A stretch of DNA of 45,879 bases from a virus, in the UHGV virus genome UHGV-0132371. The stretch is one strand, 5' to 3'. The position numbers and the translations under genes are program-made. The number at the start of each line of letters is the position of its first letter. The first letter of the stretch is position 1. Below are positions 5,453 to 10,354 of this stretch, piece by piece. Under the pieces are notes generated by a model, which was given only the letters and a program-made list of their open reading frames with translations, was not told where the DNA came from and ran no database searches.

Positions 5453-5600
5453 CCCTGAAAAAGGCTGGCGGTTACCGGAAATACACGGGAAAACACCGGG
5501 CCGCCAGAACAGGGAGTTACTTGTTATTGCTTTAGCCTGCTTTTAACCACATCAGGCGCGGTGGTATCTTGGTGTTCTCACACAACCAAGAGGGATGTTT

Positions 5601-5798
5601 ATGGGCGCTTTTGATAACCAGGAAATTACGTTACCCGCATGCCCTAAGTGCGGCACTAAGACGAAGAAGAAAATCGCTTGGCTCAAGTCGAACAAAAGTT
5701 TCACTTGTCGATGTGGAGCTACTATCAATGTCAACAGCAGCCAGCTTACTTCCGAAATCAGGATGGTTGAGGACAAGCTGAAGAAGCTCTTTAAATAG
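5601..5798 (+). CDS. Small zinc-ribbon protein (CPKCG...CRCG), antisense to the early-left gene
   Basis: AGAGGGA RBS, possible TGnTATCTT promoter upstream, hairpin plus T-run downstream; but it overlaps the minus-strand ORF 5631..5996, so it may be a shadow frame. Confidence 0.35.
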   Translation: MGAFDNQEITLPACPKCGTKTKKKIAWLKSNKSFTCRCGATINVNSSQLTSEIRMVEDKLKKLFK

Positions 5799-5996
5799 TT
5801 TTTTATCGACTGATATTATTTCGTTATCAGAGGTTGGTTTTTCAGCCTCTGATTTTTTAGTCAGGATCATTTTTTCTACACATGTGACTACGCATTCCGA
5901 ACAGATGGCAGGTTCGTCCTTACCACCTTTTGCGACGATCTTTATCGCTCCCAGTTCGGTTGCTCCGCAAAATGAGCATGTGAATAAATGATTCAT
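5631..5996 (-). CDS. ClpX-type zinc-finger protein, first gene of the leftward early operon
   Basis: N-terminus LFTCSFCG...(x19)...ICSECV..C closely matches the ClpX N-terminal zinc-binding domain; GAGG RBS before the ATG at 5996. Confidence 0.5.
   Translation of the reverse strand: MNHLFTCSFCGATELGAIKIVAKGGKDEPAICSECVVTCVEKMILTKKSEAEKPTSDNEIISVDKKLFKELLQLVLNHPDFGSKLAAVDIDSSSTSTSETFVRLEPSDFLLRLSAALRACG
5826..5859 (+). terminator. Possible hairpin terminator after the plus-strand small ORF
   Basis: ATCAGAGG...CCTCTGAT inverted repeat followed by TTTTTT; large loop, so weak. Confidence 0.3.
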
Positions 5997-6014
5997 GTAA
6001 ACCTCTACCCCCAA

Positions 6015-6252
6015 CCTAAGTTTTCTGTCAGCGAATCATCCGGTTATTCATATGCCACCGGCGGCTACTTCGTGGGCGTCCTGCCTGTTCGCTGTTGATG
6101 AATACATAATTAACCAATGGCTAATATTTGTAAACAACCAATAGTTAATTTTTGAGTGTTTAGGAATTAACTCAATGATTTTTAATAAAATATATTTTGT
6201 TGTTAAGTGATGACGTGCTTAAAAAAAACACCATCTACAAAAGAGGAGTGTT
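6015..6252. promoter_or_regulatory. AT-rich intergenic region; candidate early-left promoter/operator and promoter of the plus-strand small gene
   Basis: Very AT-rich with repeated GTTAAT/ATTAAC half-site-like motifs also present in the cI-cro intergenic region. Confidence 0.3.
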
Positions 6253-6459
6253 ATGGAACGTGATGATCTGGAAGAAGACCGCGCAGCGTTCATTGCTGGC
6301 GAGATAGGCGGAGTGGTGATTCAGTTAATCATCGAAGGGATCGAAATCAACCGTGATAATATCGTTGAGTATCTGGAGGCAAAGCGTCGCGCGGTTGGTA
6401 ACGTGATCCACAAAGGCTTGCTGAGAGATGCTGCGGAATTTGTGAGGAAAGGGCAATAA
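6253..6459 (+). CDS. Small acidic hypothetical protein (68 aa), moron-like
   Basis: Strong AAGAGGAG RBS; AT-rich upstream region; opposite orientation to neighbours. Confidence 0.5.
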   Translation: MERDDLEEDRAAFIAGEIGGVVIQLIIEGIEINRDNIVEYLEAKRRAVGNVIHKGLLRDAAEFVRKGQ

Positions 6460-6481
6460 AAACCCGACGCGGTGGTCGGGT
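6456..6481 (-). terminator. Rho-independent terminator ending the cI-cargo operon
   Basis: CCCGAC-CACCGC-GTCGGG hairpin followed by a U-tract on the minus strand, immediately after the stop at 6481. Confidence 0.55.
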
Positions 6482-6672
6482 TAGAACAGGAGTTTAACTG
6501 CGGCTAGGGTCAGACCTGTGATTGTAAAGATCGCACCAACTATCGACCAAGTCTGAATCCTGAGTTCCTTTTGTAGGTCTTCTCGTGTCGCGTAATTAGA
6601 CTTGATAACAGCAACATCAGTCTTAATGGACGCGATATCTACCTCAAGCTGCCTAACTCTTGCTTCAAGCAT
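6481..6672 (-). CDS. Small coiled-coil protein with C-terminal transmembrane helix (XhlA-like architecture)
   Basis: Start chosen at MLEARV, which has GGAGGTGA 6 nt upstream (track ORF extends to 6795 and would overlap the upstream gene); hydrophobic C-terminus [22 protein letters not shown]. Confidence 0.5.
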
Positions 6673-6739
6673 ATCATCACCTCCGCCATCTCCGCCTCGT
6701 CGTGTTATTGCAGGTAGTTCACTATTAAATGGTACTACA

Positions 6740-7087
6740 TTATTTTGCGGCGTCGGCATTTTTTTCATCTTCCGTTTTTGCCGGGAATTTTTCATTTACC
6801 CAGTTAAGAACTGAAAACGCATTTATATGTGTTTCATTTCCACAATTGTTGCATATTAGTGAAAAGTAATACTGGTTAGCAGTATCGGAATAAATGCTTT
6901 TTTCAGTAAAAACATTTACATAACTACCAAGCGCCATAGTGCATGGCATTCCAACACTCGCACTGACTTGAGGCACCGTTAACCTGTCATGCCCACATAG
7001 CGTGCATTTTAGATATATATTCTTTTCTGAGAAGTAAGAGACTAACATGTCCATGTTGATCCTTTCGAACCCCTGTTCACTCGCCAT
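6740..7087 (-). CDS. Zinc-ribbon protein (CTLCG...CNNCG), gene directly downstream of cI
   Basis: 115 aa, GAGGA RBS, starts 16 nt after the cI stop, so probably co-transcribed with the repressor. Confidence 0.55.
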
Positions 7088-7103
7088 TCACATATCCTCA
7101 GAG

Positions 7104-7838
7104 TTAAAGTCGATTATATTTAATTGACTCATGAATCAATGCCTTACCCATGACATAAAGCTGATCCTGATTCGCCTCATTGATGTACCACTTTTCATAT
7201 GCAGAGTTATCAGACAGAACAGCGAGCTTGTCACCTTGCATCTGTAGGCGCTTAACATGAAACGTCTTACCGTATACGAAAGAGTAAACACCGTCGGTCT
7301 GGAAGTGACGAACTGAGATGTCGACGAATAGTCGATCACCAGAAACGAGGGTTGGTGACATACTGTCGCCGTTAACAGTCATGACCTTCACATCTTCTGG
7401 ATCGCGATTTCCAAAAAGCACTCGGGCATGTTCAGTCGTGAACTCAATGGCGTACAAGACTTCAACATAGTCAGAAAGCATGTAGGTGCCAGGTCCAGCA
7501 CTGACAGATAAATCCAGAACTTCAACGCGATAAACATCCTGCTCTGGCTTATTAACCATGCGTTTCACTTCCCCTGTATCTGTTGGCTCACCAACACCGT
7601 ATTCCAGCCATTCGGCACGTACACCAAGTACTTTACTGAGAGCCACTATTTTCTGACTGTCCGGTATGGCCTGGGCGTTGAACCACTTCCAAACTCCAGG
7701 TGTAGTGATCTCCACCCCGGCTTTATTAAGCAGGTCTGCAAGGTTTTTGTTTCGTCCCCGACCAGTTAATCCAGCAAGTTGACAAACTTGCAGCAGCCTA
7801 GTCGTGAAACCTTCTTTCGTTTCGTCTCTCTTAACCAT
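7104..7838 (-). CDS. cI: CI-like prophage repressor (N-terminal HTH, C-terminal S24 LexA-type peptidase domain)
   Basis: VNGDSMSPTL serine motif and downstream HVKRL lysine; divergent from a Cro-like gene. Confidence 0.85.
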   Translation of the reverse strand: MVKRDETKEGFTTRLLQVCQLAGLTGRGRNKNLADLLNKAGVEITTPGVWKWFNAQAIPDSQKIVALSKVLGVRAEWLEYGVGEPTDTGEVKRMVNKPEQDVYRVEVLDLSVSAGPGTYMLSDYVEVLYAIEFTTEHARVLFGNRDPEDVKVMTVNGDSMSPTLVSGDRLFVDISVRHFQTDGVYSFVYGKTFHVKRLQMQGDKLAVLSDNSAYEKWYINEANQDQLYVMGKALIHESIKYNRL

Positions 7839-7921
7839 TAGTTAAATATCCGGGAACTTGACTTTGCTGTCAGTTAATATTTATTATTAACTTGTGGTTA
7901 ATTTTGTAATCAGGAGAGTCA
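7839..7921. promoter_or_regulatory. Divergent immunity promoter/operator region (PRM/PR-like)
   Basis: 83 bp AT-rich spacer between divergent cI and cro-like genes containing GTTAATATTTATTATTAAC and TTAACTTGTGGTTAAT dyads. Confidence 0.5.
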
Positions 7922-8170
7922 ATGAACGCTGTAGAAATTGCAGTAGAAGCTGTCGGTGGACAAACAGCAGCCGCAAAAATTTGTGGTTTATCCCCGGTAG
8001 CTGTTCACCGCTGGGTTAAAAACGCCTGTCTTCCTCGTACCGAATACACAAAAAAAACGGAATACGCGGAGTTACTTGCTTCTAAATCAGCAGGTCAGTT
8101 CACTGCTGACTGGTTGCTGGAAAATGCTAATCCTGATCGTCCAGGAAAGGTTAACGATCCATCAGCTTAA
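7922..8170 (+). CDS. cro: Cro-like / YdaS-type HTH regulator
   Basis: 82 aa, AGGAGAG RBS, first gene of the rightward operon; HTH signature GQTAAAKICGLSPVAVHRW. Confidence 0.7.
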   Translation: MNAVEIAVEAVGGQTAAAKICGLSPVAVHRWVKNACLPRTEYTKKTEYAELLASKSAGQFTADWLLENANPDRPGKVNDPSA

Positions 8171-8198
8171 ACGTAACCACAGAAATTAGGGGATAACC

Positions 8199-8762
8199 GT
8201 GGATAAACAACACTGGAAAGTAGAGCGCCAACCTGCATGGCTGGTGGCTGCAATCAAAAGAACTATTGCCGAAATGCCAGGCGGTTATACAGAAGCTGCT
8301 GAATGGCTTGGCCTGTATCGCGCTGGAAAACTCTCAACGGATGCGCTCTACAACAGACTGCGTAACGAAGGAGATCAAATTTTCCCGCTTGAGTGGGCGA
8401 TGGTGCTTCAGGATGCAAGTGGTACTAAGTATGTCACCGATGCGATAGCCCGCCGTAGTGGTGGCGTCTTCGTTCCGCTGGTGGAGGTTGATGATCTTGA
8501 TAACGGCGATATCAACCAGCGCCTGATGGAGTCCATCGAATGGATTGGTAAACACTCGCAGTACCTGCGTAAGGCAACCGCTGACGGGGTTATTGATCCG
8601 GCAGAACGTGAGCAGATTGAAGAGAACAGCTATCAGGTGATGGCTAAGTGGCAGGAACATTTGACGCTGCTTTTCCGTGTGTTTTGTGCGCCGGAAAAAG
8701 GTGACGCCCGCGAGTGTGCAGCTCCGGGCGTCGTGGCAGACAAATCTTGTATGGAGAAGTAA
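8199..8762 (+). CDS. CII-like / YdaT-YmfL-like putative regulatory protein
   Basis: 187 aa directly after the cro-like gene; GTG start with AGGGGA RBS. Family from memory, uncertain. Confidence 0.45.
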   Translation: MDKQHWKVERQPAWLVAAIKRTIAEMPGGYTEAAEWLGLYRAGKLSTDALYNRLRNEGDQIFPLEWAMVLQDASGTKYVTDAIARRSGGVFVPLVEVDDLDNGDINQRLMESIEWIGKHSQYLRKATADGVIDPAEREQIEENSYQVMAKWQEHLTLLFRVFCAPEKGDARECAAPGVVADKSCMEK

Positions 8763-8934: not shown

Positions 8935-9108
8935 ATGCGCGAAGTTAACCGAAGGTTCAAAGACCACAGAGGGATCCCCGTTCGGGTTATCCGGTGGGAG
9001 CCTGAAACGCGGCGTGTTATCTACCTGCGAGCAGGGTATGAGCACGAATGCTTCAGCCCACTTGAGCATTTCAGGCAAAAGTTCAGGGAGATAGAGGATG
9101 AGAGCTAA
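8935..9108 (+). CDS. Small hypothetical protein (57 aa)
   Basis: AGGAAGG RBS before the ATG; the alternative frame starting at 8768 is also open but ends in low-complexity sequence. Confidence 0.3.
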   Translation: MREVNRRFKDHRGIPVRVIRWEPETRRVIYLRAGYEHECFSPLEHFRQKFREIEDES

Positions 9109-9136
9109 CCCAATGAAAAAAAACTTAACTGAGAAT

Positions 9137-9538
9137 TTATCCTGCCAGGGCATTAATCCTCAATTTGATAGCCTTTTCTTCAACTTTGAACCTCTTTTTC
9201 AGGTCTTCGAGTTCTTTGGCGAGAGCAATGTATTGATCCGCAACTCCATATTGAGCAATCAGTCCGGTTGCCAGTTTAGCATCGGCGTTTTCTGGATCAT
9301 CAACATCGATGATTTTTCCATATTTTCCGGTAATAACGGCAATACGGTGCTTGCACATCGTGCCCATTTCACCAGCAATGCAAGTGCATTCTATTTCGAG
9401 GTTACCGCTCTGATCGCTGATGGTTACATCGTAAAAACCATCACCGCTGCTGCTGTTAGCCAAAAGTTGGTAGATCACGTTGTATCTCCTTATTTTTTTG
9501 TAGCGGTTAACGCTCATCCCAACCTCATTATTGATCAT
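9137..9538 (-). CDS. SWIM-type zinc-finger protein, opposite strand within the rightward early region
   Basis: C-x-C-x7-C-x-H (ECTCIAGEMGTMCKH) SWIM signature; AT-rich. The start may instead be the internal Met at 9517, which has GAGG upstream. Confidence 0.5.
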   Translation of the reverse strand: MINNEVGMSVNRYKKIRRYNVIYQLLANSSSGDGFYDVTISDQSGNLEIECTCIAGEMGTMCKHRIAVITGKYGKIIDVDDPENADAKLATGLIAQYGVADQYIALAKELEDLKKRFKVEEKAIKLRINALAG

Positions 9539-9620
9539 GCTTTATTCCAGGTATACACTGTCTCGGCAGCGGCAAAATCCGTTGCCGGGATTGGCGTCCT
9601 GGAATTGATTAAAGAGCACA

Positions 9621-9642
9621 ACCGCGCTCTGGCGGTTTTTTT
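9621..9642 (+). terminator. Possible weak intrinsic terminator (tR1-like)
   Basis: Short ACCGC...GCGGT stem followed by TTTTTTT. Confidence 0.3.
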
Positions 9643-9807
9643 GTGCGAAATGCATTGCTACACCCTGATTATGGTGGGGCGTGCAGGGGCATCGAAAGAT
9701 GCGCCGGCTTCTTTAGTCACCGGTTACGCCAACCCTGCACGTCTCACCACCAATGAGATTGGCGTCTCTTGTGGTGAGTTGTTAAAACTGACTAAAGAGG
9801 CAGCCAT

Positions 9808-10354
9808 CATGGCTACGATCCCAACCCTCGTTCAACCTGAAATTTCCGTAATTAACGGTCAGGCCGTTACCTCCTCTCTGGCTATTGCCGACTTCTTCAC
9901 TAAGCGTCACGATGACGTACTGAAAAAAATCCGCGCTCTGGAGTGTTCGCTAGAATTCACTGCCCGCAATTTTGCGGTGAGTGAATACACCGACGCTACA
10001 GGCCGCAAACTTCCCTGCTATCAAATCACCCGCGATGGCTTCGCGTTCCTCGCTATGGGCTTCACTGGTAAGCGAGCAGCACAGTTCAAAGAGGCATACA
10101 TCACAGCCTTCAACAGGATGGAAAATGCGCTTCACGGGGCAAGTGATAATTTCTGCGCAGCGCACAATGCCCACGTTGTTTACCTCTACATGTCTGAAAT
10201 TCACCGCGTCTGGTTAGAACAACTTTATCCGATGTTGGTTTCTGTTCAGTCTCCGCTAGCTTCATCACTCTACGACTACATCAACGATGGTGTATTCGTT
10301 GCTGGGTTGGTGGACTCGGAACTGAACAAAAAGCACAAGGAGGTGCGAAAGTGA
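9808..10354 (+). CDS. Rha-family phage regulatory protein
   Basis: Start at the ATG with AAAGAGG RBS (track ORF artificially extends upstream to 9098); ING..VTSSL.IADFF.KRHDDVLKKI and YQITRDGF.FLAMGFTG.RAA.FK motifs. Confidence 0.6.

Follow-up and report, generated by a model that had tools for sequence, protein, structure and literature searches.

A modular two-gene accessory operon in the rexAB slot of a lambda-like prophage: a zinc-ribbon-like protein and a predicted tail-anchored coiled coil

What is encoded by the two small genes that directly follow the cI-like repressor in the virus genome UHGV-0132371, and could they serve to keep other phages out of the lysogen? The stretch of DNA analysed here, referred to as the window, is 45,879 nucleotides long and is overall a lambda-like prophage, with head and tail genes that are about 89% identical to those of mEp237, HK225 and N15. 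The site downstream of cI is a mosaic hotspot for abortive-infection genes, including rexAB in lambda and bstA in BTP1, both of them presumably served by the same strong promoter as the repressor (PMC8585504). A position behind cI is also compatible with regulatory or addiction functions. An earlier note on this DNA had nominated the pair as an undescribed exclusion module, and we therefore set out its gene structure, its distribution, the architecture of its products and the functions that these would allow.

The operon behind the repressor

The features of the region, in window coordinates, are:

6110..6124, no strand assigned: putative OL operator, TTAACCAATGGCTAA, with 1 mismatch, at the left edge of the immunity region
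6253-6459, plus strand: convergent gene of 68 aa, with the same hairpin (6461-6482) at its 3' end
6461..6482, both strands: bidirectional intrinsic terminator hairpin with an 8-bp stem, 5 GC pairs and a T-run on the minus strand
6481..6759, minus strand: ORF2, about 92 aa, predicted tail-anchored membrane protein (phrog_6324, E=2e-17, a family of unknown function)
6740..7087, minus strand: ORF1, the 'type A' partner, 115 aa, predicted cytoplasmic and zinc-ribbon-like (phrog_4293, E=6e-30, a family of unknown function)
7104..7838, minus strand: cI-like prophage repressor, 244 aa (Pfam PF00717, Peptidase_S24, E=8.5e-17; phrog_4, E=5e-47)
7831..7901, no strand assigned: putative OR region with two perfect TTAAC-N5-GTTAA palindromes (7831-7845 and 7887-7901) and divergent promoter-like hexamers
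7922-8170, plus strand: cro-like gene, divergent from the repressor

The gene order on the minus strand is thus repressor, ORF1, ORF2 and terminator. The repressor, the first gene of the operon, carries its Peptidase_S24 domain at the C-terminus, and its N-terminus gives a weak match to HTH_3 (E=0.013; 16 bits, under the cut-off of 23). ORF1 starts 16 nt past the repressor stop codon, with a ribosome-binding site (GAGGA) 8 nt before its ATG, and the terminator hairpin lies directly 3' of the ORF2 stop codon, closing the cI-ORF1-ORF2 unit. The cassette shares the repressor's strand, and there is no space between them for a separate strong promoter; from this position we infer that it is co-transcribed with the repressor and expressed in the lysogen.

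Within the putative OR region, promoter-like hexamers are found on the plus strand (TTGACT-18-TATTAT at 7858-7887), together with two candidates on the minus strand (7873-7845 and 7910-7883). The TTAAC-N5-GTTAA palindrome has 6 matches in the whole window, where 1.05 would be expected. Since operator-like palindromes flank the cassette on both sides (6110 on the left, 7831 and 7887 on the right), its place is within the immunity region, at the site of rexAB in lambda. With the S24 repressor at 7104-7838 and the hairpin at 6461-6482, this bears out the earlier note in placing the pair in the rexAB position, behind cI, on the same strand and ahead of a terminator. Two plus-strand ORFs that overlap the cassette (6602-6814 and 6729-6869) were discounted, because conservation sits in the minus-strand frames.

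The 115-aa protein with two C-x2-C pairs that had been described after cI is present as stated (6740-7087, minus strand). Across 42 homologues the only invariant columns are its four cysteines (C28, C31, C79 and C82), which make up two CxxC knuckles, and the protein has no hydrophobic segment. When compared with the homologue from E. coli GB089, ORF1 shows 23 synonymous-only and 4 non-synonymous codon differences; because these are mostly synonymous, we take ORF1 to be a real gene under purifying selection.

The gene model for ORF2 had to be changed. The protein had been described as a 63-aa coiled coil ending in a transmembrane helix; the coiled coil and the C-terminal helix both stand, but the length does not, as the protein comprises about 92 aa from position 6759. 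The start of the 63-aa model is an internal methionine (Met42 of the open frame), a choice that omitted a conserved N-terminal peptide and a Gly-rich 'GGGDDML' segment. The frame is open from 6795, and alternative starts are available at 6768 (95 aa) and at 6795 itself (104 aa). Homologues begin at 'MPTP' (6759) or at 'MKKMPTP' (6768), a GGAAG lies 9 nt before the start at 6759, and from that start ORF2 overlaps the 3' end of ORF1 by 20 nt. Both the 92-aa and the 95-aa forms are on record at NCBI as exact sequences, and the exact ORF1 and ORF2 proteins have been recorded from E. coli. At the protein level, the 29 residues ahead of the start of the 63-aa model are conserved in E. coli and Serratia as well as in more distant relatives, and the part of the stretch before Met42 that does not overlap ORF1 has 6 synonymous and 3 non-synonymous codon differences from E. 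coli GB089.

The cassette is accessory. In an E. coli FAM21845 prophage, the left-operon DNA is 99% identical to that of the window (including RdgC and a ClpX-type zinc-finger protein), and the repressor, which directly adjoins the operator region, lies 245 nt from this left operon, with neither the cassette nor the 68-aa gene between them. The existence of this prophage implies that the cassette is dispensable for the phage life cycle.

Pairing, distribution and partner exchange

To see how far the two genes belong together, we drew a sample of loci from IMG/VR, 80 by an ORF2 profile and 80 by an ORF1 profile, and classed the ORFs with iterated HMMs. An ORF2-family gene follows 49 of the 50 distinct type A genes retrieved independently in this way, the one exception being a fragment. 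In the other direction, 81 of 97 distinct ORF2-family genes have a recognised partner immediately upstream, which is of type A in 52 cases and, in 29, is a protein of a second kind, here called type B. The remaining ORF2-family genes are mostly accounted for by truncated contigs, ORF-calling artefacts and zinc-ribbon variants that fall under the threshold. Type B proteins are unrelated to ORF1, beta-rich and 136-158 aa long; they belong to phrog_5893, with gp45 of phage epsilon34 as the prototype. Their own pairing with ORF2 (30/30) is circular, since type B genes were found only via ORF2. The earlier note had suggested looking at whether the pair co-occurs behind repressors in other prophages, and it is indeed conserved as a unit, often in that setting: an S24-profile repressor lies directly upstream in 13 of the 52 type A cases and in 21 of the 29 type B cases, figures that come from a home-made S24 profile and are an undercount, since the repressor of at least one locus is not of the S24 kind.

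The order repressor, ORF1-type gene, ORF2-type gene recurs in E. coli GB089, in Serratia, in Edwardsiella, in Enterobacter phage ENT1 and in a PrimPol-bearing element. Other type A cassettes are found in SPN3UB-like siphophages, within a non-structural cluster that separates the tail-tube/chaperone genes from the tape-measure gene, where their neighbours include antirepressor-type genes (Ant/KilA-N/Bro-N) and at least one lipoprotein gene. Short ORF2-like genes also exist without a partner, as chromosomal tandem pairs.

An exhaustive HMMER scan for type A proteins returned 186 clusters at 50% identity. Judging from these sequence surveys, hundreds of enterobacterial prophages appear to carry the two genes as a pair. 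Word-indexed searches for homologues reached less far (4 and 16 matches), and a profile built from distant members gave 42. Among sequenced phage isolates the cassette is rare: a megablast search of positions 6300-8200 against isolated phages gave no match, tblastn found type A proteins in 13 sequenced isolates and the ORF2 type in 5 records, and nothing was found with one divergent protein of type B and one of the ORF2 family as queries.

The closest described relative is in epsilon34. Its gp44 is an ORF2 homologue, with 62% identity over the coiled coil, the same kind of Gly-rich segment ('GGGNGGGDDML') and a C-terminal transmembrane helix, and the gene order is the same, with the repressor followed by the partner, the ORF2-type gene and then OL/PL; g341c and NM-3 are related. 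The partner differs: gp45 (156 aa, phrog_5893) is beta-rich, has no cysteine pairs and is unrelated to ORF1, and the N-terminal peptide of gp44 differs accordingly. In the 2008 genome paper, genes 44 and 45, which had no database matches, were remarked on as lying, 'like rexA and rexB', downstream of the repressor (PMC2629481). The description of the pair as undescribed is therefore right in part. A literature search by protein accessions and by XhlA together with defence terms turned up no characterisation of the pair, and the proteins match no known defence family, but genes 44 and 45, the former encoding an ORF2 homologue, had already been flagged as rexAB-like in 2008 (PMC2629481). That neither protein is a characterised defence gene agrees with our profile scans (PADLOC, Pfam, PHROGs and NCBIfam), which returned no known defence family. 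The scan of PADLOC-DB v2 gave no significant match, with PDC-S64 as the best hit for ORF1 (E=0.0057, 13.7 bits), none for ORF2, and coiled-coil noise only for a longer homologue. This null result is neutral with respect to novelty and lends no positive support to exclusion.

The exchange of partners leaves a trace in ORF2 itself. In 38 of 47 ORF2 proteins linked to type A, the Gly-rich segment is preceded, within 22 residues, by an aromatic-Pro motif (VVPF, VDFP, GRFPP or DYPK), but this is so in only 4 of 26 linked to type B, which tend to have 'PHxxxxYG' instead; the N-terminal peptide of ORF2 thus co-varies with the type of partner. At least five kinds of coiled-coil/transmembrane module are, by contrast, shuffled freely over both partner types. 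[quoted passage not shown] Because the ORF2 peptide tracks the partner and the GB089 mosaic agrees with this, we infer that ORF1 docks on the N-terminal peptide of ORF2; the two would then form a split head-stalk-anchor complex on the cytoplasmic side of the inner membrane.

Protein architecture and likeness to known families

Neither ORF1 nor ORF2 has a significant family match in Pfam or the PDB. The likeness of ORF1 to zinc ribbons is limited to a generic feature, the two CxxC knuckles, and it scores below threshold against the zinc-ribbon family HMMs (CpXC, 17.4 bits against 25.4; Lar TIGR03655, 13.6 against 39.6). PDB sequence-profile matches to FurB (E=0.011) and to an adenylate kinase lid are marginal and limited to zinc sites, and we treated them as generic. 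In the AF2 model, ORF1 has a helix at either terminus and, between them, a three-stranded sheet that bears the second knuckle; a loop at residues 42-54 is poorly predicted. As the model is only moderate (pLDDT 67), the missing fold match is weak evidence.

ORF2 reads, from the N-terminus, as a peptide (NNVVPF), a Gly-rich segment, a coiled coil with the motif SNYATRED and a C-terminal transmembrane segment. In the AF2 model, residues 1-29 are disordered and residues 30-94 form a single continuous helix, and the hydrophobic helix spans residues 73-91 of the 92-aa form (Kyte-Doolittle mean 2.03), so that ORF2 is predicted to be a single-helix tail-anchored protein. The most conserved stretch of the family, which carries the motif 'NYATK(E/A)D', aligns in a family profile with MATKDD of PDB entries 5apz and 5apx, although the match is weak (domain i-Evalue 0.2-0.3). 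It is from these structures that the beta-layer of trimeric alpha/beta coiled coils is defined; its consensus, [aliphatic]-A-T-K-[polar]-[DE], has been reported for DUF3782 and DUF1640 and is also prominent in the stalk-anchor membrane proteins of DUF1640 (PMC4786415). The motif in the window ORF2 is Y-A-T-R-E-D, in which the first position is aromatic (Tyr) and not aliphatic; of 96 ORF2-family ORFs, 41 contain a strict pattern, [ILVMFY]-A-T-[KR]-x-[DE], and 63 a relaxed one. Despite the weak statistics, this match at the level of the motif suggests that the ORF2 coiled coil is a parallel trimer.

Proteins of the DUF1640/CCDC90-like kind are similar in that they too have a C-terminal transmembrane helix at the end of a coiled-coil stalk, and the Y-A-T-[KR]-x-[DE] motif of the ORF2 family resembles their beta-layer consensus. 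They differ in that the 'head' of the cassette would be a separate polypeptide and not an N-terminal domain, and the Pfam model PF07798 (CCDC90-like) does not match the window ORF2, its only hit being a 64-aa chromosomal homologue at E=0.2.

A second family is invoked by database names, as the exact window ORF2 and its relatives are called 'hemolysin XhlA' in NCBI and UniRef. In architecture ORF2 does resemble XhlA, as both are short and have a coiled coil in the N-terminal, cytoplasmic part and one transmembrane helix at the C-terminus, but by score and by the absence of a lysis-cassette context it falls outside the family. The window ORF2 has no match in a scan with Pfam PF10779 (XhlA) even at E<=10; among its relatives, SPN3UB gp25 scores best (26.4 bits, E=7.7e-6) against a cut-off of 34.7, and sub-threshold matches occur in 6 of 17 ORF2-family members. 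A short ORF2 homologue matches phrog_1193 'hemolysin' at E=6e-6. These similarities, like those to the beta-layer, are weak, and coiled coils draw spurious matches. To our knowledge, XhlA lacks both a Gly-rich N-terminal peptide and a dedicated partner encoded upstream. XhlA sits in the lysis cassette xhlA-xhlB-xlyA (PMC5589764), whereas ORF2 has the repressor, ORF1 and the terminator as its neighbours. In PBSX of B. subtilis, the membrane protein XhlA is needed, with the holin XhlB and the endolysin XlyA, for the effect of holin and endolysin that was assayed, release of membrane vesicles together with lysis of the cell, which agrees with an earlier report on lysis (PMC5589764).

The comparison with lambda RexAB is one of position and composition. 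Both cassettes occupy the same slot, on the repressor strand, between cI and the leftward operator/promoter region and closed by a terminator, and both consist of two accessory genes, one for a cytoplasmic and one for a membrane protein. Scans of Pfam, PHROGs, NCBIfam and PADLOC gave no RexA or RexB homology for either ORF1 or ORF2. RexB is a polytopic protein with four transmembrane segments and RexA a DNA-binding protein of 279 aa, whereas the cassette encodes a zinc-ribbon-like partner of 115 aa and a membrane protein, about 92 aa long, that is predicted to be a single-pass, tail-anchored coiled coil. In architecture, the cassette is a further form of the repressor-linked two-gene exclusion kind. 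Two other described arrangements were considered as models and set aside. TF-smORF induction modules (Silpe et al. 2023, PMC10432266) bear no resemblance to the cassette; in them, a small antirepressor gene, in opposite orientation in the example given, accompanies the gene for a DNA-binding transcription factor, and they lie near the rep/par loci of linear plasmid-phages (PMC10432266). The overlapping exclusion genes of Pseudomonas Fc02 (PMC9936078) are unrelated, as they lie upstream of the repressor and differ in sequence.

Possible functions of the cassette

The two genes form a real, conserved and modular accessory operon in the rexAB slot, which is not yet a defence system. By analogy with RexA/RexB, we tentatively favour phage exclusion in the lysogen, by an abortive mechanism that acts at the membrane, as a possible function. 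Several features make it plausible: the position and accessory status of the cassette, the swappable heads, the shuffling of modules, the presence of an XhlA-like candidate for action at the membrane, and the lipoprotein and antirepressor-type neighbours found elsewhere. In such a scheme, an accessory two-gene module co-transcribed with the repressor would encode a split membrane complex, consisting of a head and a stalk-anchor. ORF2 would be tail-anchored in the inner membrane, with its cytoplasmic part forming a parallel, probably trimeric, alpha/beta coiled coil, and its flexible N-terminal peptide and Gly-rich hinge would dock the zinc-ribbon-like ORF1. ORF1, or elsewhere the unrelated type B head, might act as the specificity or sensor subunit, and the XhlA-like ORF2 as the membrane effector, which upon sensing would impair the membrane or act together with the holin of the invader, thereby aborting the infection. 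A constitutively made membrane-permeabilising protein would need tight control, and the proposal assumes such control.

If exclusion were the function, the cassette would be a compact (about 0.6 kb), widespread and uncatalogued addition to the defence genes carried on the most highly expressed prophage promoter, and one conserved stalk-anchor with swappable heads could help to identify the signal sensed by each head. Such a finding would also provide a first functional handle on the enterobacterial 'hemolysin XhlA' labels, which are currently uninformative, and on genes 44 and 45 of epsilon34, unexplained since 2008. A broader version is a modular anti-phage platform, of which the cassette would be the first example, and in which a trimeric, tail-anchored XhlA-like stalk would display interchangeable heads (a zinc ribbon, a beta-rich gp45-type protein or fused domains) on its short N-terminal docking peptide at the cytoplasmic side of the membrane and, once a head recognises an invader, turn into or seed a holin-like lesion; as a whole we consider this somewhat unlikely. 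If true, it would amount to RexAB-type logic built from entirely different parts and spread over Enterobacterales prophages in the repressor slot.

The same architecture would also serve for superinfection exclusion by blocked genome entry, in which the stalk would hold the head at the inner membrane, where it binds ejection or tape-measure proteins or a host channel, so that the DNA is kept out and the cell survives. Interchangeable heads fit target-specific binding, and the pair in SPN3UB-like phages lies just upstream of the tape-measure gene and near small lipoprotein genes, tape-measure-adjacent positions of the kind in which entry-blocking morons sit (HK97 gp15, Cor, Llp). Known blockers such as SieA, Imm, HK97 gp15 and Sie2009 are, however, single membrane proteins or lipoproteins that lack a cytoplasmic partner, and scans of Pfam, PHROGs and PADLOC gave no homology of either protein to them. 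The XhlA-like relationship, moreover, favours permeabilisation of the membrane over a block to entry, and we regard the latter as unlikely. The cassette might instead act on its own prophage, either by tuning the stability of the repressor or its induction, or as a pre-made XhlA-type holin accessory that sets the timing or efficiency of lysis. The linkage to immunity genes is tight and recurrent, directly behind several kinds of repressor; the SPN3UB-like copies adjoin Ant/KilA-N/Bro-N antirepressor-type genes; and the repressor's C-terminal domain, ORF1 and the ORF2 N-terminus have been inherited as one block. XhlA, in turn, is a lysis-cassette protein (PMC5589764), and RexA itself affects the lambda switch (PMC11077077). 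Against such a role, the closely related FAM21845 prophage does without the cassette, which is thus unneeded for switch or lysis; Pfam finds no DNA-binding or protease-related domain in ORF1 or ORF2; no holin or endolysin gene borders the cassette; and one ORF2 stalk pairs with two unrelated heads and many different repressors. Taken together, we judge modulation of switch or lysis to be improbable, although, were it correct, the cassette would provide a membrane-tethered input into lambdoid immunity regions.

A toxin-antitoxin-like addiction module that keeps the prophage stable, with ORF2 as a small membrane toxin and the translationally coupled upstream ORF1 (or type B) protein as its antitoxin, would account for obligate pairing and for an upstream partner followed by an overlapping membrane-protein gene, and the mixing of two antitoxin-like partner classes with one toxin-like family is in keeping with it, as are the transmembrane helices, which by inspection are rich in small residues and compatible with oligomeric pores. 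The partner has no DNA-binding autoregulatory domain, however, and the existence of partner-less chromosomal ORF2-like genes argues that the stalk-anchor is not intrinsically toxic, and we consider an addiction role very improbable. Toxin-antitoxin and abortive-infection functions are not mutually exclusive, and the addiction reading overlaps to that extent with the exclusion proposal.

Recombination joints and a gene convergent with the cassette

The block of the window that resembles the E. coli GB089 prophage, which carries a homologous cassette, is bounded by joints at 7520 and 6650. The first falls midway through the repressor gene, at the boundary between its N-terminal part and the S24 domain, and the second within ORF2, where the coiled coil begins, so that the recombination joints lie inside genes, at domain boundaries. 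Facing ORF2 is a convergent gene that shares its bidirectional terminator:

6253-6459, +, uncharacterised 68-aa gene (phrog_3975, E=7e-35)

Because E. coli FAM21845 carries a closely related prophage that lacks both this gene and the cassette, the two may have arrived as one insertion.

Candidate operators and flanking zinc-finger genes

Palindromes of the form TTAAC-N5-GTTAA, the candidate operators for this immunity type, cluster in two control regions on either side of the repressor operon, and the window holds 6 matches where shuffling leads one to expect 1.05. The features of these regions and of the genes beyond them are as follows:

6110-6124, 7831-7845 and 7887-7901, TTAAC-N5-GTTAA palindromes
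5631-6014, -, ClpX C4-type zinc-finger protein, 127 aa (Pfam score 26.0 bits, narrowly short of the 27-bit cut-off)
5595-5798, +, 'zinc ribbon' ORF, 67 aa, overlapping the preceding gene
9137-9538, -, SWIM zinc-finger ORF, 133 aa (25.9 bits for Pfam PF04434, above its cut-off of 19.6)

The ClpX-type gene, whose product is annotated likewise in E. coli, is the first to the left of the putative left operator region (OL), a position at which lambda leads one to expect an N-like antiterminator; the ORF overlapping it is probably not a gene. The SWIM ORF sits inside the rightward early operon, on the antisense strand, and may be another inserted accessory gene; it overlaps the N-terminal extension of the 9098-10354 ORF, an extension that looks spurious.

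ORF2-like genes in IMG/VR contigs

ORF2-like modules also occur in other settings:

L035 478-1024, L045 1113-1560, L048 1-466 and L079 1022-1761, short ORF2-like genes
L066 2455-3351, 298-aa protein, N-terminal domain fused directly to an ORF2-type 'DDEGML' coiled-coil and TM module

The short genes encode 64-110 aa, with an NYATK-motif coiled coil followed by a C-terminal TM helix, and lack both the Gly-rich N-terminal peptide and the partner gene. They are arranged as tandem pairs at contig ends, adjoin AraC-type regulators (called by eye from the sequence), and are probably host chromosomal genes. The L066 protein, whose long N-terminal domain is probably helical, is possibly a natural fusion of head and stalk; the 129-aa protein encoded upstream of it looks secreted, since its N-terminus is hydrophobic.
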